Positions 8,633 to 48,825 of a stretch of DNA of 64,000 nucleotides are shown here, piece by piece. A program made the position numbers and the translations under genes. The notes beneath the pieces were generated by a model. The model did not search any database. It saw only the letters and a list, made by a program, of their open reading frames with translations, and was not told the DNA's origin. Within the stretch, counting starts at the first letter, position 1. The number at the start of each line of letters is the position of its first letter. The DNA is from an uncultured delta proteobacterium (GTDB lineage Bacteria; Myxococcota_A; Polyangia; Haliangiales; Haliangiaceae), in the NCBI GenBank assembly GCA_963848295.1, contig CAWKDB010000010.1, positions 4,576,001 through 4,640,000 of the forward strand, in the 5' to 3' direction.

Positions 8633-10248
8633 CCGGGTTCGGGCTCAAGAGCGCGAGTGCGATCGTCGTGGCGGGGTTGCTCGTCGCGATCGCGGCCGTG
8701 CGCGGAGCGCTCGCGCCCGAGCATCTCGCGCATCTCGGTGCGCCGGCGTGCTGGACGATCGGGCTCGTCGCCGCGCTCGGCACCGCGCTCGTGATGCAAG
8801 GGTGGCACCCGGCGGTCGCGAGCCGCACCGCGATCGCGCTGCACGCACACCGGCTCGCGATCATCGAGGGTGTGGTGCCCCGCGAGCTGCCCGCGTTCGC
8901 CCAGCGCGCCTTGTTGTTCATCGGCATCGCGTGCGTCGCGGTCAGCGCGCTCGGCAATCACGCGGCGGCCAAGCTCGCGGCGCTGCCCGGCGAGCTCGCG
9001 TCTCCATCACCGTCGCGCTACTGCTTGCCGAAGGTCGCGGCGGCACCCGCGGCCAAAGCTGCGCCAGCGCCGGTGCCGATCGAGCAACCAGGCTGCGCGC
9101 TCGTCAAGCGCGCGTTCCAGCTCGGCTACGCGAAGACGCTCGGCTCGTGTGCGCCGAAGGTCGCGGTGGCGACGCCCGACGCGCCGGTCGCGACGAAGCC
9201 CGAGGTCTGCGAGCGGCGTCAGCTCGACGAGCCGTTCCTGCACTTCGCGGCGCGGCGGCTCGCCGGCGCGTTCGGCGATGCCGTCGCGGAGTCGCCGATC
9301 GCGCGGATCGAGCATCGCGCCGCCGACGTGCGCACCCACATCGATTACCTCGGCGGCCTCGTCGCTGATATCCACTCCGCGATCGAGGGCAGCCCGCACG
9401 CGGCGCATCACATCTGGATCAACCTGCCCGATCCGCATCCCACGAAGCTGATCGAGCACTTCACCGGCGAGCCGCGCTGCTCGACCCGGTTCGCGAGCCT
9501 CCCGCTGTGGCCGAGCTGGCACGCGGGTGACGAGTCGCGCGTCGTCGAGCACGTGCTCGGCCAGCTGTTGTTCGCGACGCGGTTTGGCACGACCGCGAGC
9601 TGCAACGACTACACGATCCATTGGGATGCACCGGCGGATGCGTGCGCCAAGTTGCGCGCGGCACCGACCACATTTGCCACGGCGAGCGTCGGCGCGGTGC
9701 TCGATCGCCGGAAACGTCAACTCGAGCTCGGCGAGCTCGCGAAGCGCCTCGGCCGCACGCCACCGCTCGCTCCGCCGCCGGCCGATGCGATCGTCAGCTT
9801 CGCGTGTCTCTCGGTCGGCGCGGCGAAGCCGGCGACCGGCACGACCGTGCAGATCGACGGCGAGACGATCAGCGTGCGCGAGGTCGGCATCGCGGCGGTG
9901 AAGCCGACCGGTGACGGTCCGATCGATGTCTACCTCGCGCTCGCGGCGATGCTCGGCGGTACCGCCGTCTTGCCGGCACCACGCGGCGCCGCGCCGACGC
10001 CGGCCGAGCTCGACGGCGACGACTTCTCGCTGACCCGCCTCGACGCGCTCACGTTCGCGGATCCGTTCTATGGAACCGCACCGCCATCCGGCGGTGCTGA
10101 CGGCGCGGGGCAGGCCCGCACCGTCGAGGGCACGCGGTGGCCGCTCGATCGCCCCGATCTGGTCCCGGTGTTTCCGTTCGAGCCTCATCTCCACGCGTTC
10201 ATCGAGACGTTTCGCCGCGGCTATCTCGCACAACGAGGTCGACTGTGA
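8629..10248 (+). CDS. Hypothetical membrane protein with a Cys-rich extracytoplasmic domain
   Basis: 3 N-terminal hydrophobic segments, at least 8 Cys in the soluble part; ATGA-coupled to the upstream gene. Confidence 0.75.
   Translation: MTGFGLKSASAIVVAGLLVAIAAVRGALAPEHLAHLGAPACWTIGLVAALGTALVMQGWHPAVASRTAIALHAHRLAIIEGVVPRELPAFAQRALLFIGIACVAVSALGNHAAAKLAALPGELASPSPSRYCLPKVAAAPAAKAAPAPVPIEQPGCALVKRAFQLGYAKTLGSCAPKVAVATPDAPVATKPEVCERRQLDEPFLHFAARRLAGAFGDAVAESPIARIEHRAADVRTHIDYLGGLVADIHSAIEGSPHAAHHIWINLPDPHPTKLIEHFTGEPRCSTRFASLPLWPSWHAGDESRVVEHVLGQLLFATRFGTTASCNDYTIHWDAPADACAKLRAAPTTFATASVGAVLDRRKRQLELGELAKRLGRTPPLAPPPADAIVSFACLSVGAAKPATGTTVQIDGETISVREVGIAAVKPTGDGPIDVYLALAAMLGGTAVLPAPRGAAPTPAELDGDDFSLTRLDALTFADPFYGTAPPSGGADGAGQARTVEGTRWPLDRPDLVPVFPFEPHLHAFIETFRRGYLAQRGRL
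10072..10128 (+). repeat. In-frame 57-bp double-hairpin coding repeat, copy A
   Basis: GGAACCGCACCGCCATCCGGCGGTGCTGACGGCGCGGGGCAGGCCCGCACCGTCGAG, translating to GTAPPSGGADGAGQARTVE. Confidence 0.85.
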
Positions 10249-10802
10249 AGGCGCTCGCGCTGCTCGTTATTTTCACCGCGACAACAGCAGCGGCGCCCGA
10301 TCGCGCCGCGTACGTCGGTCGTGCGCTGGCCGCGGTCGAGCAGCTCGGTGCCGGGCGCGACGCGCTCGCCGCGAAGATCTACACGGCGGCGCGCACGCAG
10401 TGTCACTCCGACAATGCCGCTCCGACGATCGCGTGCCTGATCGACGCGGCTCGCGCGCAGTGCGCGGGCGATGCCTCGTGCCTCCCCGCCGCCGACGTGA
10501 TCGCCACGAACTTGCGCTCGGTCGATGCGTTCGTCGACGAGGTCACCCGGGTCCGCTTGCTGCGCTCGAGCGCCGATTATCGCGTCGCGCTCGCCGCCGA
10601 GCTGCGCCGCCGCTACGGCGTGCTCGCCGCCGAGCTCGTGCTCGCGGGCGGCAGCGACGAAGCGCGCGCGATCGACCAGCTGTGCATGCACCGAGACGCC
10701 GCGGTCCACGTCTGCGAGCCCGGCGCGACCGACTGCATCCCGAGCGTGCCTTACGCGCGTTGCGTCGCGGCGCTGGTCTGGTACGTAGGAGGCGCGCCAT
10801 GA
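10245..10802 (+). CDS. Secreted Cys-rich hypothetical protein
   Basis: GTG overlaps the upstream stop; signal peptide MKALALLVIFTATTAAA; 8 Cys. Confidence 0.75.
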   Translation: MKALALLVIFTATTAAAPDRAAYVGRALAAVEQLGAGRDALAAKIYTAARTQCHSDNAAPTIACLIDAARAQCAGDASCLPAADVIATNLRSVDAFVDEVTRVRLLRSSADYRVALAAELRRRYGVLAAELVLAGGSDEARAIDQLCMHRDAAVHVCEPGATDCIPSVPYARCVAALVWYVGGAP

Positions 10803-12034
10803 GTCAGGCCTTGCGTGATCTCGTCCGCGCCGAGACCGATCGGCTCAAGCAAGCCGGTCTATACAAGCGCGAGGTCGTGTTCTCGCGCTCGGGCGGCATG
10901 GCCGCCGGCGGCATGGTCGACGGCCGCGAGGGCCAGCCGGTCGTGAACTACACGACCCACGATTTTCTCGGGCTGTCGGTCGATCCACAACTGCAGCAAG
11001 CCGCGATCGATGCGGTCCGCAAGTACGGCGTCGGCTTGTCGTCGCAACGGGTGATGTGCGGCACGCTCGATATCCACAAGGAGCTCGAGGAGTGGCTGCG
11101 CGGCTTTCTCAAGGTCGAAGACGTGATCCTCTACGGCTCGGGCTATCACGCGAACATCGGCGTGTTCGCGCCGCTGTTCGGCGCGAAGGACTGCATCATC
11201 TGCGACGGCGGTGTCCATCCGAGCCTCGCCGAAGGTGCGCGACTCGCCGGCGCGCGGCTCGTCACGTTTCGTAGCAACGATCCGGATGACCTCGAAGACA
11301 TCTTGCGGCGCTCGCGCTGGGCGCGGTTCCGCGCGGTCGTCACGAACGGCGTGCATCCGTTCACCGGCCGGCTGTCCGACCTCGGCGCGATCTGCGATCT
11401 CGCGGAGAAGTACGACGCGCTCGTCGTCGTCGACGATGCGCTCGGCCTCGGCGTGCTCGGCGATCGCGGCCGCGGCAGCGCGAGTCACGCCGGCGTCACC
11501 GACCGCGTGCACATCGTCACCGGCACGTTCAGCAAGGCGCTCGGCGGCGCGACCGGCGGCTTCGCGGCGGGCCCGCGCGAGATCATCGATTGGCTGCGCC
11601 AGAAGTCATCGCCGTACATGTTCTCCGCCGCGTTGCCGCCGCCGATGGCCGCGGTCGCGATGGCGGCGCTGCAGATCCTCGAGAGCGGCGAGGCGCCGTT
11701 GCCCGGCCTGCGCGACAACGTGAAGGCGTTGTGGGACGGCCTGGTCGAACGCAACTTCCGCGTGCTCGGAACCGGCGAGCATCCGCTGCTCGTGGTCGAG
11801 CTTGGCCGCTACGAGATCCTGCGCGAGGCGATCAACATCCTCTACGACGGCGGCATCTACTGCCACGGCCTGTGCTACCCGGTCGTGCCCGAAGGCGAGG
11901 CGCGGATTCGCTTGATGGTGTCGGCGCTGCACTCTGCCGAGCATATCCAGCAGACGCTCAAGGCGTTCGAGTCGACGAAGCAAGTCGCGTCGTTCGCGGT
12001 CGACGCGATGGACGTGCTGACCGGATTGTTATGA
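10799..12034 (+). CDS. PLP-dependent alpha-oxoamine synthase family enzyme (Kbl/AONS/SPT-like, atypical motifs)
   Basis: DFLGL, CGTLDIHKELE, GTFSKALGG (PLP Lys), PYMFS, YPVVPEGEARIR. Confidence 0.88.
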   Translation: MSQALRDLVRAETDRLKQAGLYKREVVFSRSGGMAAGGMVDGREGQPVVNYTTHDFLGLSVDPQLQQAAIDAVRKYGVGLSSQRVMCGTLDIHKELEEWLRGFLKVEDVILYGSGYHANIGVFAPLFGAKDCIICDGGVHPSLAEGARLAGARLVTFRSNDPDDLEDILRRSRWARFRAVVTNGVHPFTGRLSDLGAICDLAEKYDALVVVDDALGLGVLGDRGRGSASHAGVTDRVHIVTGTFSKALGGATGGFAAGPREIIDWLRQKSSPYMFSAALPPPMAAVAMAALQILESGEAPLPGLRDNVKALWDGLVERNFRVLGTGEHPLLVVELGRYEILREAINILYDGGIYCHGLCYPVVPEGEARIRLMVSALHSAEHIQQTLKAFESTKQVASFAVDAMDVLTGLL

Positions 12035-12684
12035 GGCTCGTGCTCGCGTTCTTGTTCGCGTGCGGTGCGGGCGCGACAGCGCCGGTCGCGAATCACACGA
12101 CCGCGGTGACGAGCGCCGAGTCGGTGGAGCAGATCTTGCGCGGGATGGCCGCGGCGTACGCGCACCTCGCGACGTTCGCGGAAGACGGATCGATCAAGAC
12201 GGTCGCCGAGGCTCACGGCGACGTTCGAGGCGACATGCAGTTCCACACCGCGAGCGTCGCGCGGGGCGCGTTCCGGATGGAGAGCGGCGGCGCGATCGCG
12301 TGGTCTGATGGCAATCGCAGCCGCCTCGTCGTCGGCAGCCTCGAGATCCCGCTCGTCGATCGACCGATGAACCTCGCGACCGACGACTTCGAGCAGCTGA
12401 CGTTGAAGCAGTGGGCCGAAGGCGACTCGGAGCTCATGCACCTGACGAACCCGCGGCTCGTCGGTGTGGAGCCGCGCGATGGTGCCTCGTGCTGGCACGT
12501 CACCGGCAACGCGGGGCGCTTCGACGTGTGGATCGATCAGCGCGACCATCGCGTCCGCGAGGTGATCACCCGCGTCGACGGCACCGAGCTCGACACGGAG
12601 AAGCTGATGTACGACGCCCATTTTCGCGTCGCCGCCCACCCGATCTCGACGGCCGAGCCGCCGCCCGCCCAGCCGGTGCCTTGA
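12031..12684 (+). CDS. Lipoprotein with a LolA-like/DUF2092-like fold
   Basis: Lipobox FLFAC; WSDG, GVE..DG..CW.V.G, VWIDQ motifs; paralogous to the N-term of the next gene. Confidence 0.65.
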   Translation: MRLVLAFLFACGAGATAPVANHTTAVTSAESVEQILRGMAAAYAHLATFAEDGSIKTVAEAHGDVRGDMQFHTASVARGAFRMESGGAIAWSDGNRSRLVVGSLEIPLVDRPMNLATDDFEQLTLKQWAEGDSELMHLTNPRLVGVEPRDGASCWHVTGNAGRFDVWIDQRDHRVREVITRVDGTELDTEKLMYDAHFRVAAHPISTAEPPPAQPVP

Positions 12685-14089
12685 CCGCGGGAATGCGCTG
12701 CTATGCTTACGGCGTGAGCAGCGCACGCGTCGCCGTGGTCGGGTTGGTCGCGGCGTGCGCGCACCCGGTCGCGGCGAAGCCCCCGGCGACAGCCGCACAG
12801 GTGTTCGCGGCGATGCGCCATGTGTATGCCTCCGCGACGACGTATGTCGACCACGGCGACATCGCGGCCACCGTGCGCTCGGGCGCCAAGACGCAGACGA
12901 CGACCGGTACGTTCCGCACCGATCACGAGCGGCGCGGTCGGTTGCGGTTCGAGTATCAGGGCGCCGAGATGAGCCATCCGCTCGTCCTGTGGTCCGACGG
13001 CGCGACCGCGACGCAAGTCAGCGGCGACACCGAGAGCGAGCCAGCCTCCGAGAAGTTCGGCGGCTTCAACATCCTGACGAAGTACATCTCCGGGTTGGTC
13101 CTCGGCGAGCTGCGCAACGAGCCGGCGTCGCTCACCGAGGTCGATCACGCGCAGGTTCAGGGCGTCGAGTCGATCGATGGACATCCGTGCTGGAAGATCG
13201 CGGGCGCCGTTCACGGCGGAGCGCGGACCCTGTGGGTGGATCAGAGCAGCTTTGTCGTGCGCAAGCTGACCGAGCACGACCGGATCTCGGCGAGTGAGTC
13301 GGCCGACGTCGACCTGATGGCGCACTACGTGCCCGAGCTCGATGTCGCGATCGCGTCGGGCCGGCTCGATCGTCCAGCGCCCGATCCGCCACGCGAGCCT
13401 GAGCACCCGCAGTGGATCGGCGTCGGCTTTCATTCGGGCGGGGCGACGGTCGATCGCGTCTACAAAGACTCGCCGGCCGACACCGCGGGCTTTCGAGCCG
13501 GCGACGAGATCAAGAAGCTCGACGGTCAGCTGATCGACGTCACCAAGTTTCGCGAAGCGATGGCGACGTCGAGACCCGGCGCGGCGTTCGCGGTCACGGT
13601 CGAACGTGCGGGCCAAGAAGTCACGCTCCACGTCGCGCCGGCTCCGCGGCCCGAGCTCGCGACGTTGCAGCAAGGCCTCGTCGACAAGCCGGCGCCGCCG
13701 TTCGCGCTCGCGCGGATTTCCGGAACCGCGTCGCCGAAGCTCGCGGACCTCGCGGGCAACGTCGTCGTCGTCGACTTCTGGGCGACGTGGTGCGGTCCAT
13801 GTCGGATGTCGATGCCGCATCTCGACGCACTGTCCGCGAAGTACGCGACGAAAGGCCTGCGGATCATCGGCGTCACCGACGAGGACGCGGCGACGGTCAA
13901 CGAGTTCTTGAAGGCGAACCCGGTCGGCTACACGCTCGCGACCGATCCCGACGACGCGATCGCGAGCGCGTACCTCGTCCAAGGCTTGCCGACGTTGATG
14001 GTGCTCGATCGCTCCGGCGTCGTGCGTTACGAGCAAGTCGGCGTCGGCGACTTCGCCGCGCTCGACGGCGAGATCGCCGAGCTCCTCGC

Positions 14090-16251
<2,162 letters not shown>

Positions 16252-16255
<4 letters not shown>

Positions 16256-16485
16256 GGGTCGTCGATCCGGATCTGCGCCGCTTCGCTGCGTCGCATCGAC
16301 CATTGGCCGCCGCGGACCTCGATCTGGAGCGGGTCACCGAGCGGCGCGATCGCGACGATCCGCACGCCGATGCCAGGAACGAGCCCCATCTCGAGCAGGC
16401 GGCGTCGAAAGCTCCGCGTGCCATCGACCGCGCGGACCGTCGCGACCTGGCCGAGCGGGATCTCGGCGAGCGAGCGCGACGACAT
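16252..16485 (-). CDS. feoA: Ferrous iron transport protein FeoA
   Basis: RRRLLEMGLVPG, APLGDP, MRRSEA. Confidence 0.95.
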
Positions 16486-16503
16486 GATCCAGCGGTAGCA
16501 TTC

Positions 16504-16520
16504 TTGAAAATCGTTTTCAA
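16504..16520. promoter_or_regulatory. Putative Fur box
   Basis: AT-rich palindrome TTGAAAA-TCG-TTTTCAA, 18 bp upstream of the feoA start. Confidence 0.75.
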
Positions 16521-16545
16521 CTTCAAATCCAGAACCTTGCCCGGG

Positions 16546-16601
16546 ACGGAGTAACCTTTGACACCTTGCGCCCCGGTGTCTGGTGTCAAAGGTTACTCCG
16601 T
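16546..16601. repeat. Perfect 20-bp inverted repeat (variant of the GGGGACG..TTTGTCAAC family)
   Basis: ACGGAGTAACCTTTGACACC (16546-16565) and GGTGTCAAAGGTTACTCCGT (16582-16601), 16-nt loop. Confidence 0.9.
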
Positions 16602-16660
16602 GCCCGGGTATGTGCCCGAGATCGCACGATCTGGCGCAAATCTCGCGCGAGCCATCCGCG

Positions 16661-17218
16661 ATGCTAAATTCGAAGAGCGTGGACGCCGCTAACACATTGC
16701 TGCTCAATCAGGGGTTCGAGCCGATCAAGGTGATCTCGTGGCAGCGCGCGATCAGCTTGTTGTTCCTCGGCAAGGTCGAGGTCATCGAGGAATACGCCCA
16801 CGACATCCGGTCGGTGAACCTCGTGATCAAAGTACCTGCGGTCGTCCGGTTGCTGCGCGCGTTTCGCCGCCACGCGCGGCCCGTGAAGTTCTCCCGCGTC
16901 AACATCTACGCGCGCGATCACTACAAGTGCCAGTACTGCGGCAAGAAGGCGTCGCTGACCGAGCTGACCTACGACCACGTCGTGCCGCGGTCGCGCGGTG
17001 GACTCACCGACTGGATGAACATCGTCACCTGCTGCTACATCTGCAATCGCAAGAAGGGTGGGCGCACGCCGCAGGAAGCCGGCATGCGGTTGCTCGCTCA
17101 GCCCGCGCAACCGAACTGGGTGCCCGCGATCACGATCCGGATCTCGCTGCGCTCGGTGCCCGAAGCGTGGCGCGACTACTTGTATTGGACCGGCGAGCTC
17201 GACGCGTCGCCCGGCTAG
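16661..17218 (+). CDS. HNH endonuclease (McrA/HNH_5-like)
   Basis: LLLN, RDHYKCQYCG, TYDHVVPRSRGG, WMNIVTCCYICNRKKG. Confidence 0.92.
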   Translation: MLNSKSVDAANTLLLNQGFEPIKVISWQRAISLLFLGKVEVIEEYAHDIRSVNLVIKVPAVVRLLRAFRRHARPVKFSRVNIYARDHYKCQYCGKKASLTELTYDHVVPRSRGGLTDWMNIVTCCYICNRKKGGRTPQEAGMRLLAQPAQPNWVPAITIRISLRSVPEAWRDYLYWTGELDASPG

Positions 17219-17221
17219 ACG

Positions 17222-17337
17222 TGGGGACGCTGTCTCTATTGTCAACTTAGGCGGCTAAGTCACGGATTCGTGGTGACGACCGAGTTGGATCGTGGTGACG
17301 AGAGGGGAGTAAGTTGACAAAAGAGACAGCGTCACCA
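17222..17337. repeat. 28-bp inverted repeat pair of the GGGGACG..TTGTCAAC family (2 mismatches)
   Basis: TGGGGACGCTGTCTCTATTGTCAACTTA (17222-17249) and TAAGTTGACAAAAGAGACAGCGTCACCA (17310-17337). Confidence 0.9.
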
Positions 17338-17357
17338 TTCGATGTAGTCTGCGCGGG

Positions 17358-18977
17358 ATGACCGTCCAGACGATCGCGCACGCCGCTCGCGACCTTGCCG
17401 ACCGCGCGATCGCCGCCGCTCGCGCCTTGCCCGGGGACCCCGACGATCGTCAGGTCGTCGTCGAGAAGGTCGCGTATGCCGCGACCGAAGCGCGCGTGAT
17501 CGACGAGCTCGTCGCAACGCCGGCGGAGCTCGCGCCCGCCGCCGCGGTCGCGATCGCGGAGCTCGCGGCGTCGCTCCGTCATCGCCTGGAGCCGATCGCG
17601 CCGGCCCTTGGGCTCGGCGAACTGCGCTATGGCGATGCCGCGCGCGCTGCGATCGCGGAGCTCGTCGCGCCGTCGGCGGTCGAGGCGATCGGCGCCGCCG
17701 CGCTCGCGGGCATGCCGGCATGGCCTCTCGACGAAACGCTCACCGAGGTTCGCAGCAACGTCCGTGCGTTCGCGGAACGCGAGGTCGCGCCCGCCGCCGA
17801 AAAGATCCACCGCCACGACGAGCTCGTGCCCGAGCGGTTCATCAGCGAGATGGCGAAGCTCGGCTACTTCGGCCTGTCGATCCCGGCGAAGTACGGCGGG
17901 TTCGAGCTCGGCAACCTCGCGATGATCCTCACGACCGAGGAGCTGTCGCGCGCGTCGCTCGCCGCCGCGGGCTCGCTGATCACGCGCCCCGAGATCCTCG
18001 CGAAGGCGTTGCTCGCCGGCGGCACCGAACCGCAGAAGCAGACCTGGTTGCCGCGCCTCGCGTCGGGCGAGGTGATGGCGGCGATCTCGGTGACCGAGCC
18101 CGACGTCGGTTCGGATGTCGCCCAGCTCGCGTGTCGCGCCGAGCGCGTCGCCGGCGGCTGGGAGATCACCGGCGCGAAGGCGTGGTGCACGTTCGCCGGT
18201 CGCGCCGACGTCATCGCGCTGCTCGCTCGCACAGGGCCCGGTGGCGCGCGCGGGCTGACGCTGTTCATCGTCGACAAGCCGCGGTTTCTCGGGCACGAGT
18301 TCACCGCGACCCAGCCGGGTGGCGGCACGTTGACCGGCAAAGCGGATCGCACGCTCGGTTATCGCGGCATGCACTCGTTCAGCCTCGCGTTCGATCGCTG
18401 GCTCGTGCCGGATACCCAAGTCGTCGGCGGTGACGATGGCGTCGGCCGCGGCTTCGCGCTGCAGATGACCGGATTCGCCGCCGGCCGGTTGCAGACCGGC
18501 GGTCGCGCGTGCGGGCTCGCACAGGCGGCGCTCGATCACACACTCCGCTATGTTGCGGCTCGTCGTCAGTTCGGTCGACCGACCGCCGAGTTCGAGCTTA
18601 CCCGCTACCACCTGGGACGGATGGCCTCTCGCCTCGTCGCAGCTCGAGCGATCACCTACGCGGCGGCGCACGCGATGGACGGCGACGACGGCGCGCGGGG
18701 CTCGGACGCCAACACCCTCGATCGAACCGCACCGCCCTTCGGCGGTGCTGCCGGCCGCGGGCAAGCCGCGACCGTCGCGGCGATGGCGAAGCTGTTCGCG
18801 AGCGACGTCGCGGTCGAAGTCACCCAGCTCGGTCAGCTCCTCCATGGCGGCTGGGGCTACGCCGAGGAGTACCCGATCAGCCGTTACGTCGCCGACGCGC
18901 TGGTCTTGCCGATCTTCGAGGGGGTCAAGCCGATCCTCGCGCTCAAGGTGATCGGTCGCGCGCTGCTTGGTTCGTGA
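17358..18977 (+). CDS. Acyl-CoA dehydrogenase with N-terminal extension (methylsuccinyl-CoA dehydrogenase-like)
   Basis: TEPDVGSD, GAKAWCT, LGYRGM, RRQFG, HGGWGYAEEY, IFEG. Confidence 0.9.
   Translation: MTVQTIAHAARDLADRAIAAARALPGDPDDRQVVVEKVAYAATEARVIDELVATPAELAPAAAVAIAELAASLRHRLEPIAPALGLGELRYGDAARAAIAELVAPSAVEAIGAAALAGMPAWPLDETLTEVRSNVRAFAEREVAPAAEKIHRHDELVPERFISEMAKLGYFGLSIPAKYGGFELGNLAMILTTEELSRASLAAAGSLITRPEILAKALLAGGTEPQKQTWLPRLASGEVMAAISVTEPDVGSDVAQLACRAERVAGGWEITGAKAWCTFAGRADVIALLARTGPGGARGLTLFIVDKPRFLGHEFTATQPGGGTLTGKADRTLGYRGMHSFSLAFDRWLVPDTQVVGGDDGVGRGFALQMTGFAAGRLQTGGRACGLAQAALDHTLRYVAARRQFGRPTAEFELTRYHLGRMASRLVAARAITYAAAHAMDGDDGARGSDANTLDRTAPPFGGAAGRGQAATVAAMAKLFASDVAVEVTQLGQLLHGGWGYAEEYPISRYVADALVLPIFEGVKPILALKVIGRALLGS
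18723..18779 (+). repeat. In-frame 57-bp double-hairpin coding repeat, copy B
   Basis: CGAACCGCACCGCCCTTCGGCGGTGCTGCCGGCCGCGGGCAAGCCGCGACCGTCGCG, translating to RTAPPFGGAAGRGQAATVA. Confidence 0.85.
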
Positions 18978-18978
18978 G

Positions 18979-19524: not shown

Positions 19525-19564
19525 ATTGCCACGGCAAGGTCGGGGGACTTAAGCTCTGTAATAA

Positions 19565-26715: not shown

Positions 26716-26738
26716 TCGATCCGCGCTAGGCTGTGGTC

Positions 26739-29070: not shown

Positions 29071-29138
29071 CCTGCGGCATCTCGTACGGACCTGGCGGGT
29101 TGCACGGAACGGCCAGGGACCGTATGTTCCACGCGCCT

Positions 29139-31961: not shown

Positions 31962-32054
31962 GGCCCGTGCGTACACCAAAACTGCCCCGCGGTGACAATC
32001 AGGATGGCGTTCCTTCGCTTCACGAAACGCCGAGGATCCTGCTCTAATTGCCGG

Positions 32055-34979: not shown

Positions 34980-35557
34980 TCGTCAGCCTCGTCGCCGAAC
35001 AACTCGGAGACATCGAGCTCGATGGCTTCGAACGGTTCGGCTCGAACGCGATCTCCGGAGGTCGCGGTGACGATCACCGTGTAACCGGCGGTGGCCCACC
35101 GATGGACGAGCAAGATCTTCTCCTCCGGATGCAGCGCCCAGTAATGCGGCACCTCCGCTGCGTGCAAGATCCTTGGCTTGACCACCAGGTCCTGGCGCTC
35201 GTGCTTGGGCGAAATGATCTCGCACACCCAATCGGGCCGGAGTCGGACGGGCCAACCTGTCGGTCGCTCGGGGGTTCGATCGCGACGCCAGCCGGCTGCA
35301 TCGTGGCAATACACTTCGCCGGTCGCATACTCGACGTGGATCTCGGTCAAGATCCACCAGCCGCCCGGGCCGCGCTTCCCGGGGCGACGATTGAATCCGT
35401 GCAACACACCGCCGAGCCGGCTCTCTGCAAAACTGTGCTCGGGCGAAGGAGAGGCCTTTTCGACGATCGTCCCGCCGATGATCTCGAGTCGGTCGTTCGC
35501 AGAGATCGCACCGAGGTCCGCAGCCGTGGCGGGCTTGAGCTTGGAAGGTGCGGCCAT
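34976..35557 (-). CDS. Uma2/DUF820 family endonuclease
   Basis: EIIGG, PSPEH, PDWVCEIISP, VPHYW, AEPFEAIEL. Confidence 0.9.
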   Translation of the reverse strand: MAAPSKLKPATAADLGAISANDRLEIIGGTIVEKASPSPEHSFAESRLGGVLHGFNRRPGKRGPGGWWILTEIHVEYATGEVYCHDAAGWRRDRTPERPTGWPVRLRPDWVCEIISPKHERQDLVVKPRILHAAEVPHYWALHPEEKILLVHRWATAGYTVIVTATSGDRVRAEPFEAIELDVSELFGDEADD

Positions 35558-35603
35558 CGCCCTCCTATGCTACCGCGAGTCGATGGCGCAGCCTCGGCGG
35601 ATC

Positions 35604-36101
35604 CTAGTCGAAGCGCAGACCGGCGATCTGCGCGGCGGCGTTAGCACCGTGGAGCGCGTCGCGCTTGAGTGCGGCGAGCTCGACGCGCAGTGGGTCGGCG
35701 TCGGCGAGGCTCGCGAGCTTGCCGGCGAGCGAGCGCGACCGCGACGCAAACGCGAAGCCGGTGCTGGTCACCGGAGGCGCGGTGATGACCTCGGTGGAAT
35801 GGTCGGTGATCGCAGCCCAGGGCGCGGACTCGTGTGCGGCGCGTGGCCACGCCAGCGTCGCGACCAACACGGCCGCCATCGCGGTCGCCGCGAGCGCCGG
35901 CCACACCATCGCCGGTCGACGCGCGTTCGGCCTCGGAGCCCTCGGCGCTGCCACCGTCAACCGGTCGTGCAACGCGTAGAGCCGAGTCGCGACGGTACGG
36001 CACCGCTCGCAGGTCTCGAGGTGACGCGCCACGGAAGGGCGACGCTCCCCATCGCCGTCGAGCTCCGACGACAGCTGCCAACGCACGATGAAGCAGGTCA
36101 T
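35604..36101 (-). CDS. Zinc-binding anti-sigma factor (HxxxCxxC)
   Basis: C...LS..LDG, HLETCERC, single TM; overlaps the sigma stop codon. Confidence 0.8.
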   Translation of the reverse strand: MTCFIVRWQLSSELDGDGERRPSVARHLETCERCRTVATRLYALHDRLTVAAPRAPRPNARRPAMVWPALAATAMAAVLVATLAWPRAAHESAPWAAITDHSTEVITAPPVTSTGFAFASRSRSLAGKLASLADADPLRVELAALKRDALHGANAAAQIAGLRFD

Positions 36102-36613
36102 GGCACCGTCTCCTTCATTAGCTTTCCACGAGCGCGGAACAAAAGCACCTTGGTTCCGACCACCGACTTGCCGAGCTCGCGCGCGACCTCGCGGACCTCG
36201 AGATCGCGGGCGTAGCGCAGCCACAGCGCGCGATACGCCTGCTCGGTCAGCACGCGGCGCGCGGTCTGCCAGACGGCATCGTCTCGGTCGGCGATCGGCG
36301 CCTCGCTGACCACCGGCTCGCCCTCGCTTTCGACGCGCTCGCGGCGCTGCTGGGCGATCCGGTAGTTGATCGCGGTGTTCTTGCCGATCGCGAACAACCA
36401 GGTCGAGAACTTGCGCGCGGGATCGTAGCTCGCGAGGTGCTGGTATGCGCGAGCGAGTGTCTCTTGCGCCACGTCGTCGGCATCCGACGGTGCCGCCACG
36501 CGACGCGCCAAGAACGCGACGAGCGGCGGCCTCACTCGCGTCACGAGCTCGTCGAAGCTCGCTCGATCACCGCGCTGGGCGCGGACCGCCAAGTCTTCCA
36601 ACGACACGTCCAT
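36098..36613 (-). CDS. ECF sigma-70 factor
   Basis: ADDVAQET, FSTWLFAI, EVARELG...KVLLFRAR. Confidence 0.9.
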   Translation of the reverse strand: MDVSLEDLAVRAQRGDRASFDELVTRVRPPLVAFLARRVAAPSDADDVAQETLARAYQHLASYDPARKFSTWLFAIGKNTAINYRIAQQRRERVESEGEPVVSEAPIADRDDAVWQTARRVLTEQAYRALWLRYARDLEVREVARELGKSVVGTKVLLFRARGKLMKETVP

Positions 36614-36618
36614 CGGGA

Positions 36619-37560
36619 TCAGTTGATCTTTGCATTTACCGCGTTGTTGCTGATCAGCAGCTTGACGAGATCCGCCGTCGGCATCGCGAACGCGACGTCG
36701 GTGGTCGTGCCGGAGATCGAGATCTTCACGTTCTTCGTGATCTGGGCGAACTGCTTGTTCTCGTCTGCGAGTGCGGCGAGCGCGAGCAGGCCGTCGAGCA
36801 CGCTCTTGACCTTCTGCGCGCCGTCGAGCGTCGCCATCGTCGCGGTGGCACGAGCGCGGAGCTCGCCGCCGAACTCCCCGATGTCGAGCGCCACCGCGGA
36901 CATCTCGGTCTGGAGCAGCGTCGAGCCGGCTGCCTTGCGGACGTCGTCGAGCATGCCCTTGCCGAGCACCACGAACAGGAACATGCCGCGGTCCATCGTC
37001 GCCGGCAGCTGCTTCGCGGTCAGGCTCGCCGCCTTGCCTTGGCTGACCGCGATCGTGCGGTCGAGGTCCGCGACGCGATCGGACACCCCGACGACGTTGC
37101 CGAACACCGCGACCGTGACCGGCTTGGCGTCGAGCGTGATCGTATAGCGACCGCCCTGCACCTTCTGGCCAGCGAGCATCGCGATCGAATTGGCAAAATC
37201 ATTCGCAGCGGCGACCCCGGGAAACTCGAACATCACGACGCCCTGGGTGTCGGCCTTGTCGTCGGGCTTCGCGCCCGCCGGGTGCGGCGAGTCTGCGAGC
37301 CACAGCGTGATCGCGGAGCAATTCTTCTCGAGCTGCGCGATGACGGGCTTGGCCTTGACCAGCTCGGCGTCGTCCTTATCGGCGGCGAGCGCCGCCTCCA
37401 GCATCTTCATCAGGCTGGACGCTCGGAACGCATCGACATCCAGGTGGCCGACGCCCGCGGCGTCCGCGGGGATCCGGTGCAGATCGAGCGGGGTCGCCTC
37501 CGCAGCCGGGACGAAGATCAAGGCGAGACCGAGTGCGAATCCGAGGAACATGTGGCGCAT
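36619..37560 (-). CDS. Secreted hypothetical protein
   Basis: Signal peptide MRHMFLGFALGLALIFVPAAEA; co-oriented with the ECF sigma. Confidence 0.75.
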   Translation of the reverse strand: MRHMFLGFALGLALIFVPAAEATPLDLHRIPADAAGVGHLDVDAFRASSLMKMLEAALAADKDDAELVKAKPVIAQLEKNCSAITLWLADSPHPAGAKPDDKADTQGVVMFEFPGVAAANDFANSIAMLAGQKVQGGRYTITLDAKPVTVAVFGNVVGVSDRVADLDRTIAVSQGKAASLTAKQLPATMDRGMFLFVVLGKGMLDDVRKAAGSTLLQTEMSAVALDIGEFGGELRARATATMATLDGAQKVKSVLDGLLALAALADENKQFAQITKNVKISISGTTTDVAFAMPTADLVKLLISNNAVNAKIN

Positions 37561-37610
37561 ATGCCGCTGATACAACGGCCGGGTGCCCCGGGTTACACGG
37601 GCGGCCAAGA

Positions 37611-37997
37611 TCAGCGCAGATCGTTGCCGTCGACCCAGCCGTCGCCGTTGCGGTCGAGCCGGCGCAACCGGCGCTGTTCGCGCAGCGGCACTTCGCCCGG
37701 GCCCGCAACACCATCGCCGTTGCGATCGTAGCGCTGGACCGCGCCGTTGATCTCGCGGCGTTCGGCGCGGCGCTCTTGGCGGACGAGCCGCCGCTCGATT
37801 TGGTGCAGCGCGCGGATCGCGTGGCGCCGTTCGTTCGGCTCGAGCCGGCCGTCGTGGTTGCGATCGAACCGCTCGAGCAAGGCTTGGCGCAGCTCGCCGC
37901 GCTGCTGAGGCGGACCAACAAGACGATCCGCGCGTGCGGCCCCACCAAGTGCGGCGAGCGAGAGCACCGAGGCGGCGATCAAACTTACGAGCTTCAT
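37611..37997 (-). CDS. Secreted EF-hand protein
   Basis: Signal peptide; DRNHDGRL, DRNGDGVA, DRNGDGWV loops. Confidence 0.85.
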   Translation of the reverse strand: MKLVSLIAASVLSLAALGGAARADRLVGPPQQRGELRQALLERFDRNHDGRLEPNERRHAIRALHQIERRLVRQERRAERREINGAVQRYDRNGDGVAGPGEVPLREQRRLRRLDRNGDGWVDGNDLR

Positions 37998-38056
37998 GCC
38001 CGGTTCGACTCACGTCGCCCGAGGAAGTTAAGCAGGTCGCGATGTAGTCGCGTTGC

Positions 38057-40021
38057 CTACGGGCAGGGGTCGGTGAGTCCGCCGGGCGCTGGGATCGTCG
38101 GCACGCCATCGCGCAAATAGCTCTCGAGGAAGCAACCATACTGGTGCTTCACGCTGTCGAGCTGGCGATAGATGTAGTGCGGATCGATGATGCCGTCGCC
38201 GTTGAACTGCACGACCGCGCGCGTGTAGCCGTCGCGGTTGCCCTTGACCGGGTACGTCATCAGACCGCTGGTGCCGTCGAGCGCGAGTGCGTCCTGCATC
38301 GTCGGCCAGACCTCGTCTCCGGCTTCGGTGTTGCCGTACGACAGTGCGGCGGCGTCGTAGACGTCCGTCGGGAAGTACGTGTCGCCCTTGCCGACCGGCT
38401 CGTAGATATGGCGGATCGGCATGCCGGGCAACGGGCGGTCGCCGAGGCGCGACATCGCCGCGACCGGCTCGGCGATCTCCCAGCCAAGCGCGATCGTGTT
38501 CATCGCCGGATGCAGGAACGTCGCGCTGTCCTCGTCGATCCCGAGCGCCGCGGTCAGCAGGTCCCTCGCGCCGGGCACGCTCGCGGTCTCGAGGATCATC
38601 AGGTTCCAGAAGCCGCCGGCGCCGGTCGGCACGAGCGCGCCGAATCGCGGCTCGATCGAGCCCACCAGGTTCGTGTACATGCCGCCCATCGATTGGCCGC
38701 CGGCCATGCGATTGCTGGCATCGAACGAGTAGCTGCCGGTCGTCGTCGAGATCCCGGTGCAGCCGGCGAGCGTCGCCGCGGGAATCTGCAGCGTCTCGAG
38801 CGCGTCGGTGAGCAGCCGTTGCTCGAACACGCCCTGCTGGAACGTGAACGGCAGCGCCGCGACGTTGTTGATGCTGAGGTACTCGTAGTCGGTCGCACCG
38901 GGGAAGCGCTCGGGGTTGAGCGGCAACGCCGAGGACACCGCGGCGATGCCGTGCAGCGCGACGACATAGCCCGGACCTTTGCCCGGCTCGGGATCGTCGC
39001 TCGAGTCGGGCGAGCGGCCGAGATCGACGAGCCCGCTCGAGAGTCCGCCGGAGCCGTGGAAGAATTGATAGAGCGGAAAGCCGTTCGCGGGCATCGCGAG
39101 CTTCGGCAGCGTGATGACGACCGGGATGGTCATCATCGTCTGCATCTGCGGCACGTCGTTGCCATCGACGACGAAGATGCCATCGCTGTTGAACGGCGGC
39201 GTCCCGGTCTGGAACTGCGGCACGGTGAGCGTGCCGTCGAGTCGGCAGAAGCCGTCGTAGGTGTCGCCGCCGGTGAGCGCGAGGTTGTCGACCGTGACGT
39301 GATACGCGGCGCGGATCGCTTCCGAGCGCTTGAACAGTCGGCCGACCTCGTCGCCGGTCGTGAACACGGTCGCGATGAGCACGTCGTCGGTTGCGATCCC
39401 GGCGGACGCGAGCGCGGGCCACAGCGGCGCATACAGCGTTGCGGCAGCGGCCCCTCGGTCGCCACTCGGCGTCTTGCCGGCGGCGAGCTCGGCGAACGCG
39501 GCGGGTTGCGTGAAGCCCGGTGCGAACGACGTGCGCAGCACGTACGCGTACGTCGTCGCGGGGCGAAGCACGATGCCAGGACGCGGCGCGATGCCGACGA
39601 GGTTCGTCGGCGTATAGCCGTCGGGTACGAGCGTCTGAGCGACGGTGGCGTACTCGGTGCCGAGCTCGGGCGAGGTCGGATCGATGTCGATCAGCACGAC
39701 GTCGCCGCCCGGTGCGATCACATCGCCGATCGCGCGATCGGGAATCGTGGCGGTGAACCGGAAGTACGCCGCGGGCATCGACGTCCAGCCCGTGTGCGCG
39801 GGGACGTTCGACAGCACGTTCTCCACGAGCGGGACGTCGCGCGCGTTGAGGAACCCGGTCATGTCCGGCGCGCCATTCGCGTCGAGCCGGAGGTCCGACG
39901 GGAACGGCAGGTCATAGAACGATTGATCGGCGAGCGGGCTGCTCAGATCGAACACCGCGGTCGATGAGGTCGAATCACCGCCGCACGAGACCACGAGCGC
40001 GACTGCGAGAATCCGTTTCAT
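38057..40021 (-). CDS. Lipoprotein with Ig-like N-term and alpha/beta hydrolase (lipase-like) domain
   Basis: Lipobox VVSC; PFPSD, FHGSGG, GQSMGG nucleophile, GKGD, DPH. Confidence 0.8.
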   Translation of the reverse strand: MKRILAVALVVSCGGDSTSSTAVFDLSSPLADQSFYDLPFPSDLRLDANGAPDMTGFLNARDVPLVENVLSNVPAHTGWTSMPAAYFRFTATIPDRAIGDVIAPGGDVVLIDIDPTSPELGTEYATVAQTLVPDGYTPTNLVGIAPRPGIVLRPATTYAYVLRTSFAPGFTQPAAFAELAAGKTPSGDRGAAAATLYAPLWPALASAGIATDDVLIATVFTTGDEVGRLFKRSEAIRAAYHVTVDNLALTGGDTYDGFCRLDGTLTVPQFQTGTPPFNSDGIFVVDGNDVPQMQTMMTIPVVITLPKLAMPANGFPLYQFFHGSGGLSSGLVDLGRSPDSSDDPEPGKGPGYVVALHGIAAVSSALPLNPERFPGATDYEYLSINNVAALPFTFQQGVFEQRLLTDALETLQIPAATLAGCTGISTTTGSYSFDASNRMAGGQSMGGMYTNLVGSIEPRFGALVPTGAGGFWNLMILETASVPGARDLLTAALGIDEDSATFLHPAMNTIALGWEIAEPVAAMSRLGDRPLPGMPIRHIYEPVGKGDTYFPTDVYDAAALSYGNTEAGDEVWPTMQDALALDGTSGLMTYPVKGNRDGYTRAVVQFNGDGIIDPHYIYRQLDSVKHQYGCFLESYLRDGVPTIPAPGGLTDPCP

Positions 40022-40107
40022 GGCGCGTGAATATAGAGAGCCTGGCGTACGAAGCGACGAATAGTTACAGCCCGATGACCCGGGGTCTGCAACGAACGTG
40101 AGCCGGA

Positions 40108-41385
40108 TTACCCGGAGATCGTGCGGCGCGGGGCGCGATACCTCGGCGGGACCCTCGCGGCGGTCCTGACCTTGTCGAGGATCGCGTGCGCGAGCTCGGC
40201 GTCGTCGGGGATGAACGGCACGCCGACCGCATCGAACAGCGGGCGATCGCTGTCGGACACCTGGCCGATCAAGCAGACCTCGCCCTTGGGTCCGTCGGGC
40301 AAGCCGCGCGCGTACATGATCAGCTCGAGCGCGTTCATCACGCCGCGCAACGACGAATCGACGAGCACGAGATCCGGCTGATCGCGGTTGAGCTTGTGAG
40401 CCGCATCGGTGCCTTCGCTCGCGATCTCGACGTTGACCGATGCCTGAGCGCGGCGCGCCAGGCTCCACAACCAGCGTGCGCGTGCGGTGTCGTCATCCAC
40501 GATCAACACGCGTAGCGTGCGAGTCGCGGCGCCGAGGCGTTCGATGATCGCTTCGAGCTGGAGCAACACCTCGGCTGCGGAGCGCGGCCGCATGGCGGGA
40601 TGTTTGACGAGCAGCCACTCGACCAGATCCGACAGCTCGCTCGGTAGGTCGGGTCGCAGATCGGCGATGCGCGGTGGTGGCTCGTGCGCGTGCCCACGCA
40701 GCTCGTTGGCCGCATCCTCGTCGGCGAACGGCGGTAAGCCGCGCGCGAGCTCGATCGCGACGCAACCAAGGCCATAGAGATCGATCGCTTCGGCGGCGGC
40801 CGGATCGTGTGCGACCGCGGTGCCGAGCACGATCTCGGGCGCGAGCACCTGGCCGTGCGGGCCGAACGCAGGCACCTGAGACAGCGAGAGTCGACCGAGC
40901 ACCATCCGTCCATCGGCGCAGAGCAAGACGGTCGAGCCCGAGATGTCGCCGACCGCGATGCCACTCTCGTGCGAGCGCACGACCGCCGCGACCAGCGTGC
41001 GCAGCCGATCGAGATAGACGCCCGGAGGTGGAGGCGTGTCGAGCACGTCGCGCAGCAGCTGGCCGACGACGCGTTCGCCGACGACATACTCGGCTCCGTT
41101 GTGGTTGCCCATGCCGTGCATCTGGACCGAGCACGGGTCGCGGACCGCGGCGCAACGCCGTGCTTCGAGGATCAGCGACGGCGTGCCGGGGTCGCGCCAC
41201 GCGAGCTTGAACGCGACCGGGCGGTCGAGCAGCATGTCGCGGGCCTCGAACACGACGCCGGTATCGGTGCGCGCGATCTCGTCCTTGATCGCGTACGTCG
41301 AGTTGATCACCTCGCCCTGGGCGAGCGATCGCACCGGGCTTTCGCGAAATCCCGGCGGCGCACTGAACGATCCCGAGCGAGACAC
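40108..41385 (-). CDS. Ser/Thr pseudokinase fused to a receiver-like domain
   Basis: VAFK and APE, DLYGLG retained; HRD/DFG replaced by VGDISGST/GRL; C-term VLIVDDD..PDLVLVD. Confidence 0.8.
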   Translation of the reverse strand: MSRSGSFSAPPGFRESPVRSLAQGEVINSTYAIKDEIARTDTGVVFEARDMLLDRPVAFKLAWRDPGTPSLILEARRCAAVRDPCSVQMHGMGNHNGAEYVVGERVVGQLLRDVLDTPPPPGVYLDRLRTLVAAVVRSHESGIAVGDISGSTVLLCADGRMVLGRLSLSQVPAFGPHGQVLAPEIVLGTAVAHDPAAAEAIDLYGLGCVAIELARGLPPFADEDAANELRGHAHEPPPRIADLRPDLPSELSDLVEWLLVKHPAMRPRSAAEVLLQLEAIIERLGAATRTLRVLIVDDDTARARWLWSLARRAQASVNVEIASEGTDAAHKLNRDQPDLVLVDSSLRGVMNALELIMYARGLPDGPKGEVCLIGQVSDSDRPLFDAVGVPFIPDDAELAHAILDKVRTAARVPPRYRAPRRTISG

Positions 41386-41398
41386 GACCTCGGGTGTA

Positions 41399-42247
41399 TC
41401 ACGGCCACGCCATCGCGACCGCGCCCGCCGCGACCAACGCGGCCCCGGCGATCTGCGGTGCGCGCGGCTTCTCGCCCATCGCTGCGGCGAGCATCGTCGC
41501 GAACAGGACCGAGGTATTGCGCGCGGTCAAAGCGAACCCCGCGCCGCTCGACGCGAGCGCCTGGATCAGCAGCAAGAACGAACCACCGCAGATCACGCCC
41601 ATCAACGCGACCCGCAGTGTACGCGTACGCAGCAACGCGATCGCGACGCGGCGGCCGGCGCGGCCGAGGCGCACGTAGTTGATCGCGGTCGCGAGCCCGA
41701 GCGCGAGCGCGAACACCGCCGACGAGCTGCCGCCCGCCTCCATCGCCGCCTTGTACGCGAGGTGATAGCCGGCGATCGCGCCCGCACAGGCGATCGTCCA
41801 GGGCAGCGCGCGCCGCGGCATCGACGCCGATCCGGACGTGCGGCCGGCCAGCGCGACACCGGCGAGCACCGCGACGCTGCCTGCGATCGCTCCGGGCGTC
41901 GCGACCTCGGAGAACCACGCGATCGACAGCGGCCAGATCACGAGGATCGCGCCGCCGCGCGACACGGTGTAGACCGGCCCGAGCGGGCCACGGTCGAGCG
42001 CGCGTGCGAGCGTGACGAAGTAGGCGAGCTCGAGCACGCCAGCCGACAGCGACCACGCGATCGACGCGGTCGTCGGCAGCGGCGGCACCCCGGTCGCGGC
42101 CCAGCGCGCCCCGGCGACGACGGCGGCGAGCACCGTCGCGACGGTCACCGCGGCGACGAGCGCGCGGTCTTTGTCGGCTTCGAGCCGGAGCAGCGCATTC
42201 CACAGCGCATGCAAGAACGCCGAGGCCAAGACCAGCGCGATGTCCAC
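41399..42247 (-). CDS. EamA/DMT family transporter
   Basis: LASAFLHALWN, VYTVSRG, RNTSVLF, GE motifs; about 10 TMs. Confidence 0.88.
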   Translation of the reverse strand: MDIALVLASAFLHALWNALLRLEADKDRALVAAVTVATVLAAVVAGARWAATGVPPLPTTASIAWSLSAGVLELAYFVTLARALDRGPLGPVYTVSRGGAILVIWPLSIAWFSEVATPGAIAGSVAVLAGVALAGRTSGSASMPRRALPWTIACAGAIAGYHLAYKAAMEAGGSSSAVFALALGLATAINYVRLGRAGRRVAIALLRTRTLRVALMGVICGGSFLLLIQALASSGAGFALTARNTSVLFATMLAAAMGEKPRAPQIAGAALVAAGAVAMAWP

Positions 42248-42259
42248 GTCGGACCCAGC

Positions 42260-43351
42260 TTACGCGCGCCGGGCCGCGGATATTGCATCGCGCTCCGCCC
42301 AGAACGTCGCCATCGTCGGCCACACGCGCTCGGCTGCCTTGCGCGAGACGACCGCGCCGACGTGGCCGCCGCCGAGCGCGACGAGTTGCTTGTCGCGGCT
42401 CGCGACGCCGCCGAAGGTGCGGACTTGCCCCGCGCCGGCACCGGCGCCGAATGGCGGCGCGGTTCCACCGACGAGCGGCGCCGCGCTCGCGAGCGGCACG
42501 ATGTGGTCGTCGGTGAACGCGAGCGCGAGCACCGGGCACGTGATCTGTGCGAGGTCGGCTCGTCGGCCGGCGAGCGCGAAGCCGCCGCGCACGAGCGCGT
42601 TGCCGCGATACAGCTCGTCGATGTAGCGCGCGTAGCACGCGCCCGGGAACGCCACGTTGTCGTTGCCCCAGGTCTCGGTGGCGACGAAACCCTCGAGGAA
42701 CTCGTCGTCCCATGCACGATCGAGCACCGCGACCAGCTTGGAGGCGGCCAGCGTGGGCCTGAGCGCGTGAAAGCTCGCTTGCATCAACCGCCACGGCACG
42801 TTGCCGAACGCGTCGGTCAGTGCGCGGACGTCGAACGCGGCCGTGCGCGTCCACGTCGCCATGATGCCGGCGTGATCGAAATCGATCGGCGCGGCGAGCG
42901 CGACGAACGAGGCGACGTGCTCGGGGAACGCCGCGACATACGCCGCGGCGAGCGTGCCGCCGAGGCAGTAGCCGAGCACGTGGACGGGGCCCGCCGCGTA
43001 GCGCGCCGCGACTCGCACGGCGCGACCGAGGTAACGGCCGCCGATGTCATCCCAGGTCAGGAACCGATCCTCGTCGGTCGGCGTGCCCCAGTCGATGCAG
43101 AATACCTCGTGGCCGTGCGCGACGAGCCACTCGACGAACGAGCGCCCGGGCCCGAGGTCGAGCACGTACCACCGGTTGATCAGCGACGGCACGAGCACGA
43201 TCGGCGTGCGAAAGCGCCGGACGCTCGGCGAGAACCGCAGCAGCCGCCACTTGTTCTCGGTCCACACCACGGTGTGCGGTGTCGAGCCGACCGACGCCGG
43301 GCCCTTCGTCGAACGCTTCGCGAGGGCGAGGAGTGAGCGCAACGGTTTCAA
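42260..43351 (-). CDS. phaC: Polyhydroxyalkanoate synthase, class III PhaC-like (copy 1)
   Basis: TPH.VVW, LVPSLINRWYVLDL, IDWG, GYCLGG (Cys), DDHIVP (Asp), GGHVG (His). Confidence 0.85.
   Translation of the reverse strand: MKPLRSLLALAKRSTKGPASVGSTPHTVVWTENKWRLLRFSPSVRRFRTPIVLVPSLINRWYVLDLGPGRSFVEWLVAHGHEVFCIDWGTPTDEDRFLTWDDIGGRYLGRAVRVAARYAAGPVHVLGYCLGGTLAAAYVAAFPEHVASFVALAAPIDFDHAGIMATWTRTAAFDVRALTDAFGNVPWRLMQASFHALRPTLAASKLVAVLDRAWDDEFLEGFVATETWGNDNVAFPGACYARYIDELYRGNALVRGGFALAGRRADLAQITCPVLALAFTDDHIVPLASAAPLVGGTAPPFGAGAGAGQVRTFGGVASRDKQLVALGGGHVGAVVSRKAAERVWPTMATFWAERDAISAARRA
42410..42466 (-). repeat. In-frame 57-bp double-hairpin coding repeat, copy C
   Basis: GGAACCGCGCCGCCATTCGGCGCCGGTGCCGGCGCGGGGCAAGTCCGCACCTTCGGC, translating to GTAPPFGAGAGAGQVRTFG; absent from the paralog at 52162. 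Confidence 0.85.

Positions 43352-46178: not shown

Positions 46179-48825
<2,647 letters not shown>

Follow-up and report, generated by a model that had tools for sequence, protein, structure and literature searches.

The 64,000-nt stretch of an uncultured delta proteobacterium analysed here (the window; contig CAWKDB010000010.1, positions 4,576,001 to 4,640,000) carries three copies of a 57-nt palindromic unit, each in frame in an unrelated protein gene. The unit represents a new family that works like the Rickettsia palindromic elements (RPEs) and the intragenic repetitive extragenic palindromic sequences (REPs). A reading made from the sequence alone had proposed a selfish, RPE-like palindromic element, and this is supported: orthologs of the host genes lack the segment, many further copies are present in the genome and paired stem bases change together. 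The features of the RPE-like kind are found, i.e. a dispersed palindromic repeat in many copies, present in frame in unrelated genes and absent from their orthologs.

Mobility is seen most directly in a comparison of the source genome (G000) with a sister genome (G104) of 87-92% DNA identity. The 91 G104 loci compared are a subset of 60 model and 114 pattern matches; 10 weak loci, one at a contig edge and 14 without an ortholog were left out. At the remaining 66 alignable sites, G000 is empty by exactly 57 nt in 33 and empty with other gaps in 13, while 10 sites are shared and 10 show array differences or partial loss. Because 46 of 66 sister sites are empty, 33 of them by exactly 57 nt, the unit is mobile and recent. 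The empty sites also show that the target, TCGA, was present before insertion. The base counts at the 33 sites are T 29, C 25, G 29 and A 23, the background frequencies being 0.28 for T before CG and 0.27 for A after TCG.

How common is the unit? An iterated, ungapped position weight matrix finds 151 full units scoring at least 25 at 131 loci in G000, and no unit scoring 10 or more in the reversed genome; nhmmer gives 182 matches at E<=0.01 versus 0 in the reversed genome. Since both searches find many units in G000 and none in the reversed control, the three window copies are not a product of chance, and the predicted abundance of copies is borne out. At nine G000 loci the units form head-to-tail arrays with a period of 57, in which they are 97% alike, compared with 72% among dispersed copies. 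Array size differs between the sisters, with four units in G000 and one in G104 at two loci. Four predicted G000 genes contain two independent copies each (C10:1625306, C10:2876722, C2:116226 and C2:1211701), in two of the genes in opposite orientations.

The window copies, the parts of copy A and the host genes are as follows. Unit positions are numbered from the first base given in the sequence-only reading, along the strand used there (the numbered strand).

10067..10127, plus strand: copy A, 57-nt unit and TCGA core; best-fit unit 10067-10123, core 10124-10127; in frame in a 539-aa Cys-rich protein.
18718..18778, plus strand: copy B, 57-nt unit and core; best-fit unit 18718-18774, core 18775-18778; in frame in the C-terminal domain of an acyl-CoA dehydrogenase.
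42411..42471, minus strand: copy C, degenerate 57-nt unit and core; best-fit unit 42471-42415, core 42414-42411; in frame in polyhydroxyalkanoate synthase (PhaC), between the catalytic Asp and His.
10078..10097, minus strand: copy A, hairpin 1 (unit positions 7-26), with a stem of 8 bp and a minus-strand loop that reads c(GNAB)g.
10098..10101, minus strand: copy A, candidate guide (unit positions 27-30), adjoining hairpin 1 at its 5' foot on the predicted folded strand.
10099..10125, minus strand: copy A, hairpin 2 (unit positions 28-54), whose stem varies and whose foot overlaps the TCGA junction.
8629..10248, plus strand: host gene A, 539 aa; Pfam gives no match, and 3 of 40 relatives have a homolog.
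17358..18977, plus strand: host gene B, acyl-CoA dehydrogenase (Pfam), 539 aa.
42260..43267, minus strand: host gene C, PhaC (Pfam), about 335 aa from the predicted start.

All three copies were re-derived with the coordinates, frames and peptides first reported. The identity counts of 43/54 (A/B) and 45/54 (A/C) are reproduced when the last codon is omitted (45/57 and 46/57 over the full 57 nt), and stem 1 is indeed perfect in copies A and B. In copy C, stem 1 is damaged and TCGG stands at both ends. The start of the unit needed correction, as the junction sits in TCGA, 4-5 nt upstream of the base first chosen. No other copy was found in the window by profile search.

The orthologs are consistent in lacking the unit: 23 of 23 informative PhaC loci (from a set of 24, one being truncated) are shorter by exactly 19 aa, and the segment is absent from 24 of 24 acyl-CoA dehydrogenases and 3 of 3 homologs of host A. 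One row each in the PhaC and acyl-CoA dehydrogenase sets comes from an unpublished genome, G010. An exact empty site for copy C is present in G104. The claim of a 19-residue difference in Asp-to-His spacing between the two PhaC proteins holds, but the spans are 48 and 29 residues rather than 49 and 30; a spacing of 29 is found in 118 of 120 PhaC homologs, the remaining two giving 14, which are likely pattern artefacts. At copy B, the orthologs are short by 23 aa, 19 from the unit and four extra. These four residues lie just before copy B, are absent from all 24 orthologs and represent a second small insertion (window 18690-18722).

Within the genus, a covariance model matches 38 of 90 genomes at E<=0.001, the counts per genome being lower bounds drawn from the best ~59 candidates in each; G010 and G057 are included in the genus tallies, and none of the conclusions rests on either. 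In a draw made across the order, 30 of 85 congeners have matches to the model, against 0 among 55 genomes from 24 other genera. Units in congeners are 51, 54, 57 or 60 nt long, and arrays of 56- and 58-nt units also occur. Hairpin 1 is the most conserved part, and the stem of hairpin 2 sets the length (51-60 nt). Named records that match an exact pattern, and taxon-named PhaC homologs, are mostly labelled Kofleriaceae, a few having other depositor labels. Viral contigs gave 0 exact matches to one 24-nt unit pattern. Rfam gave no match to the unit on seven loci that carry it (two chance matches do not fall on the unit), and the papers listed in searches of open-access main text include none on the 57-nt family, a scope that does not extend to supplementary files (e.g. 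the table of intragenic REPs in PMC3733652).

At the junctions, no target-site duplication is seen and the target tetranucleotide is fixed, as in IS200/IS605-type elements, though a 55+2 split with a duplicated CG gives the same gain. Positions -4 and 53 agree in 64 of 98 cases versus 61.5 expected, i.e. no duplication is seen beyond the invariant core, and this chance-level agreement rules out a variable target duplication. A nearest-neighbour test of junction bases, element versus target, is informative only at positions -5 and 2. Could the unit be a 55-nt MITE (a miniature transposable element with inverted repeats), for which a DDE transposase would make the cut at T^CGA and leave CG duplicated? 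In its favour are a palindromic target, in which T and A are the preferred neighbours of a near-invariant CG, a 55+2 split that accounts for an identical 57-nt gain, and the presence of several DDE insertion sequences. The proposal is nevertheless quite improbable: the profile shows no terminal inverted repeats at the unit ends, no multicopy repeat among those listed shares these ends by inspection, and the one-sided covariation of flank and internal base and the strand-specific DNA loops, both described below, are left unexplained.

The base just outside the left TCGA, at position -5, is complementary to internal base 30 (p=1.8e-6; the copies are kin, so this and the other covariation p-values are overstated). 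It is G in 55 of 96 copies with C30, A in 13 of 27 with T30 and C in 8 of 11 with G30, and positions -6 to -8 show no association with base 30. This test retained 2 of 74 G104 copies after de-duplication. In G104 alone, A is present at -5 in 11 of 16 T30 copies versus 6 of 55 C30 copies, and the bias already exists in the empty sites (4/8 vs 2/25, p=0.02). Base 52 pairs with base 30. Positions -5 and 52 both follow base 30, yet exactly one unit is gained, so one of these two positions must come from the target; therefore the sequence of the element predicts its target. It is likely that the choice of target is encoded by the element itself.

The covariation fits guide pairing and junction homology alike. 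By the latter route, a small DNA circle would integrate by short homology of its junction (NTCGA) with the target, via host recombinase or repair functions, with neither guide pairing nor an HUH transposase. The same covariation is predicted because base 52 pairs with base 30, and the route agrees with the missing cognate enzyme, the absent replication-strand bias and a crossover that can be placed only within TCGA. There is also a parallel in the cyanobacterial SDR5, which inserts precisely inside HIP1 (as related in PMC4390886). TCGA is 4.5-fold above its zero-order expectation in G000, but is not among the top Markov-enriched 4-mers, and a HIP1-like enrichment was ruled out on that account. 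The homology stops short of positions -6 to -8, a search of G000 for an IS110 recombinase gave none, and the conserved hairpin 1, its DNA-type loop and the strand asymmetry are not explained. Integration of a circle by homology thus appears unlikely.

The stems were located by mutual information, which pairs positions 7-14 with 19-26 and 28-37 with 45-54. Stem covariation, first noticed in the window copies, is present in both stems in a set of 23 copies: 46 cells are changed on both sides versus 15 in shuffled data, with 0 of 500 shuffles as high, and pairing is found in 91.8% of stem cells, slid controls being lower. The loops point to one strand. On the strand opposite the numbered one, loop 1 reads c(GNAB)g in 94 of 107 copies (66 of 73 in G104), with the variable positions at N and B, and loop 2 reads g(CNNG)c in 53 of 107; PMC2275088 names both motifs among the stable tetraloops of DNA. 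On the numbered strand, A.C mismatches exceed G.T in stem 2 of G000 (52:16, or 30:13 without pair 33:49) and in both stems of G104 (25:5 and 25:6). We infer that it is the strand complementary to the numbered one that acts, folded as single-stranded DNA; for copy A, this would be the minus strand. Read along the folded strand, the target TCGA is followed by hairpin 2, then by positions 30-27, hairpin 1, a short tail and finally TCGA. At the feet of hairpin 1, one strand has AACC and the other GGCA/GTCA, with no GTAG or CGTC tag.

Gene context was assessed with a dicodon model trained on G000 (6,383 genes, 85% coding), which is a predictor made for this work and not a curated annotation. It places 97 of the 131 loci inside predicted genes, 27 in intergenic regions and seven across a gene edge. 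Clearly coding flanks are present on both sides of 63 of the 97; 10 lie within the first 20 codons, a region in which the start may have been called wrongly. The three window copies are all sense and in the same frame, as first described, but this does not hold genome-wide. Of the in-gene copies, 53 are sense in phase 0, 25 antisense in phase 0, 10 antisense in phase 2, seven sense in phase 2 and two in phase 1, such that 36 of 97 are antisense to the gene. This distribution departs strongly from uniform (p=3e-25) and little from the phases that TCGA takes within genes (p=0.058); most of the frame bias is accounted for by the codon phase of TCGA. Among 16 length variants, non-triplet forms are outside genes in 9 of 9 cases and triplet forms inside in 5 of 7. 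One of 34 non-genic loci resembles a possibly interrupted gene. Support from paralogs is scattered, with a minority of 29 loci with matches showing a clean 19-aa gap. Read antisense, 9 of the 53 sense copies would contain a stop.

In phase 0, sense copies exceed antisense copies 53:25 (p=0.002). Such an excess, together with the group II intron-type reverse transcriptase (RT) genes that are present, would suit spread through an RNA copy, by RT or retrohoming, in which the stems are RNA structure. Yet loop 1 carries the DNA tetraloop motif in 94 of 107 copies and GNRA in one of 107, and in most in-gene copies the strand favoured for folding runs antisense to the mRNA. With no Rfam match on the seven unit-bearing loci and no convincing unit half near RT loci, movement through RNA is very improbable.

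Do the hosts benefit from the copies? Conservation of hairpin 1 extends to 38 of 90 congeners, and host roles have been reported for REPs, so that a peptide loop, mRNA structure or protein-binding site might be what is retained, and not a selfish unit. Against this, most sites are empty in the sister genome and in-gene loci (97/131) do not reach the 88% that TCGA sites would predict (p=6e-6). Seven shared copies diverge by 9.0%, compared with 8.3% in their flanks; of the changes, one is compensatory and 14 are one-sided. Sense, antisense and intergenic copies show similar patterns of mismatch. Since shared copies diverge like their flanks and the patterns are alike in all contexts, the stems are likely selected for movement rather than for host use; retention for a host function is scarcely credible. 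A predicted model of PhaC with the insert (59-row alignment) keeps the fold at a mean pLDDT (per-residue model confidence) of 90. Residues 271-285 fall below 50, forming a loop between a helix and the strand that precedes the catalytic His, where low confidence is expected because the alignment is empty. A single-sequence AlphaFold model (pLDDT 34) was set aside.

How, then, might the unit move? The favoured reading, held with slightly better than even confidence, is peel-and-paste transposition in trans by a host HUH enzyme of the Y1 or REP-associated tyrosine transposase (RAYT) type, with bases of the element likely guiding target choice. It is favoured because the layout of the tetranucleotide at the hairpin foot matches the guide rule of IS608 and TnpA-REP: in IS608, four bases beside a hairpin, at its 5' foot, as a rule direct cleavage by pairing, and the like has been proposed for TnpA-REP with pairing that straddles the cut, guide-directed cleavage as such being established in both systems (PMC6006769, PMC3479197, PMC8266576, PMC5934647). 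The mobile, non-coding 57-nt element would transpose as folded single-stranded DNA, be cut and rejoined by the enzyme, and insert at TCGA without net duplication. Hairpin 1 is the predicted enzyme-binding hairpin, with the putative guide at its 5' foot. After excision the circle junction would read TCGA, and every insertion would recreate targets, so that arrays can grow. Given the triplet length and the codon phase of TCGA, most in-gene copies would survive as largely neutral 19-residue loops.

A broader proposal is more tentative and is rated somewhat short of even. The family may be a minimal, self-programming transposon of 51-60 nt, in which one DNA hairpin recruits a host HUH enzyme without REPtron linkage and an internal guide base sets the target; subfamilies would have retargeted themselves (GTCGA, ATCGA, CTCGA), and the triplet length would make coding DNA the main habitat, with loops of 17-20 residues in more than one gene per hundred.

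Several observations weigh against an HUH enzyme guided by the element. In G000, the Y1-like and Y2 genes have no unit within 1.5 kb of them, no convincing unit was found in 39 Y1 loci scanned with the covariance model and for half-elements, nor in 29 Y1 loci from five unit-rich genomes, and a quick tree of 58 of 67 loci shows no Y1 clade common to unit-rich genomes. Replication-strand bias is absent, 65 of 129 copies being on the leading strand as judged from a weak GC skew. The best-fitting crossover lies between positions -5 and -4, but can be placed only to within TCGA. Stem 1 in G000 shows no strand asymmetry (A.C vs G.T, 32:29), loop 2 of one subfamily fits c(GNAB)g on the numbered strand (18/107), and the candidate guide at positions 27-30 is not GTAG. 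To these are added the kinship of the copies and the origin of 9 of 11 G30 copies in other genomes.

The search for the enzyme gave other results. A RAYT gene flanked by copies had been predicted; none was found at the loci scanned, though G000 is 85% complete and may lack the gene for that reason. Split unit halves around a gene are absent from G000, unit halves at Y1, Y2 and RT loci are unconvincing, and none flanks the G000 Y2 locus. On two whole G104 contigs, copies lie 1.8-4.8 kb from Y1 loci. G000 has nine Pfam Y1 matches and a second Y1-like family, and the Y1 expansions in the quick tree are genome-specific. Co-occurrence of Y1 genes and the unit is uninformative because Y1 is present in 87 of 90 congeners.

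The Y1 genes are themselves multicopy across the genus, with up to 37 matches per genome. In G000, one Y1 gene (C10:3806671-3807414) is a singleton that G104 shares, and one of the multicopy families is represented at C2:1374063. The second multicopy family encodes proteins of ~355 aa with an NHHH motif and is missed by Pfam Y1_Tnp (G000 C10:3663347-3664411, C10:3189407, C10:3947044, C2:1134464 and C2:1135956). A separate structured, non-coding element of 250-450 nt, with 12 strong copies, is found upstream of most members of one multicopy Y1/RAYT-like gene family and also alone (G000 C2:1374899-1375151, C10:3039972, C10:4478154, C10:4764552 and others; L003-L006, L008, L009); three of its loci gave no Rfam match. 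Locus scans gave no support for a resemblance of this leader element to the 57-nt unit. At G000 C10:52753-54547, an IS91-type Y2 transposase open reading frame (ORF) lies back to back with a fragment of another.

Other constituents of the window deserve mention. A second repeat family starts with GGGGACG and ends with TGTCAAC, often as direct pairs 65-74 nt apart (1124-1150, 1190-1216, 5252-5278 and 5317-5343), with 131 matches genome-wide and 0 in the reversed genome. Its start fits the motif GGGG[AT][CG]A[CG], reported by PMC6006769 in repeats flanking subclass 2.1 Y1 genes. Host gene B has an HNH endonuclease gene (16661-17218) just upstream of it, a satellite of the hexamer (GGAACC)n lies in or beside an alpha/beta-hydrolase ORF (47758-47918), and a PAAR-motif ORF is present near 54.5 kb (54455-55584).

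Coding palindromes are an already known phenomenon, and the mechanism by which RPEs and REPs disseminate is called unelucidated in PMC8266576. Here, dozens of filled and empty site pairs, a defined target, a strand signature and target-switch subfamilies make a mechanism of spread directly testable. The family also provides a natural genome-wide insertion scan, with ~97 in-gene sites that carry 19-residue inserts, one of which separates the catalytic Asp from the catalytic His in PhaC. Should guide pairing hold, the unit would be a very small DNA-programmed insertion module.

On the features compared, the unit is not a member of RPE proper, the GTAG/CGTC REPs, the IS91 family or the classical MITEs. 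It resembles the Rickettsia RPEs as a palindromic, non-autonomous repeat in frame in unrelated genes with no known cognate enzyme. RPEs, as described by Ogata (2000/2002; via PMC10969869), are ~150 bp with nearly half of 44 copies in genes, whereas the unit is 51-60 nt with 97 of 131 loci in genes; by this description, and not by sequence, the two are set apart. In addition, the RPE host is an intracellular alphaproteobacterium and that of the unit a free-living soil myxobacterium, and the unit has a defined TCGA target and antisense insertions. From the IS91 family (PMC13181058) it is separated by the lack of a Y2 transposase match at E<=1e-8 in six unit-rich genomes (G104, G053, G049, G063, G083 and G069), and from classical MITEs by the lack of terminal inverted repeats and of a variable target duplication. 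SDR5 in HIP1 (Elhai, 2008, via PMC4390886) is likewise a very small mobile module that inserts precisely inside an abundant palindrome, in another host and another target.

In-frame intragenic REPs encoding 20-30 aa are reported from Opitutus terrae, Thauera and R. conorii (PMC3733652, PMC6006769, PMC3479197, PMC8266576). Like the unit, GTAG/CGTC REPs are short hairpins in high copy number that have a tetranucleotide at the 5' foot and occur in frame inside genes, and their guide-directed cleavage of single-stranded DNA has a counterpart in the candidate guide. The unit differs in having no GTAG or CGTC tag, a TCGA core and not the CT of REPs, a mostly intragenic location (97/131 loci) where REPs are predominantly extragenic, head-to-tail arrays and not inverted dimers, and no REPtron that could be found. 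IS608 and ISDra2 have a lagging-strand bias (PMC6006769), and the unit shows no such bias; in comparison with IS200/IS605 elements it is only 57 nt, lacks a transposase gene, has no autonomous partner found with the same ends, and its target and element end share one tetranucleotide. Common to both are the absence of target duplication, subterminal hairpins and a preference at the base just beyond the cut (PMC5934647, PMC6006769), and the tetranucleotide target that pairs with element bases in IS608 is paralleled here by covariation.

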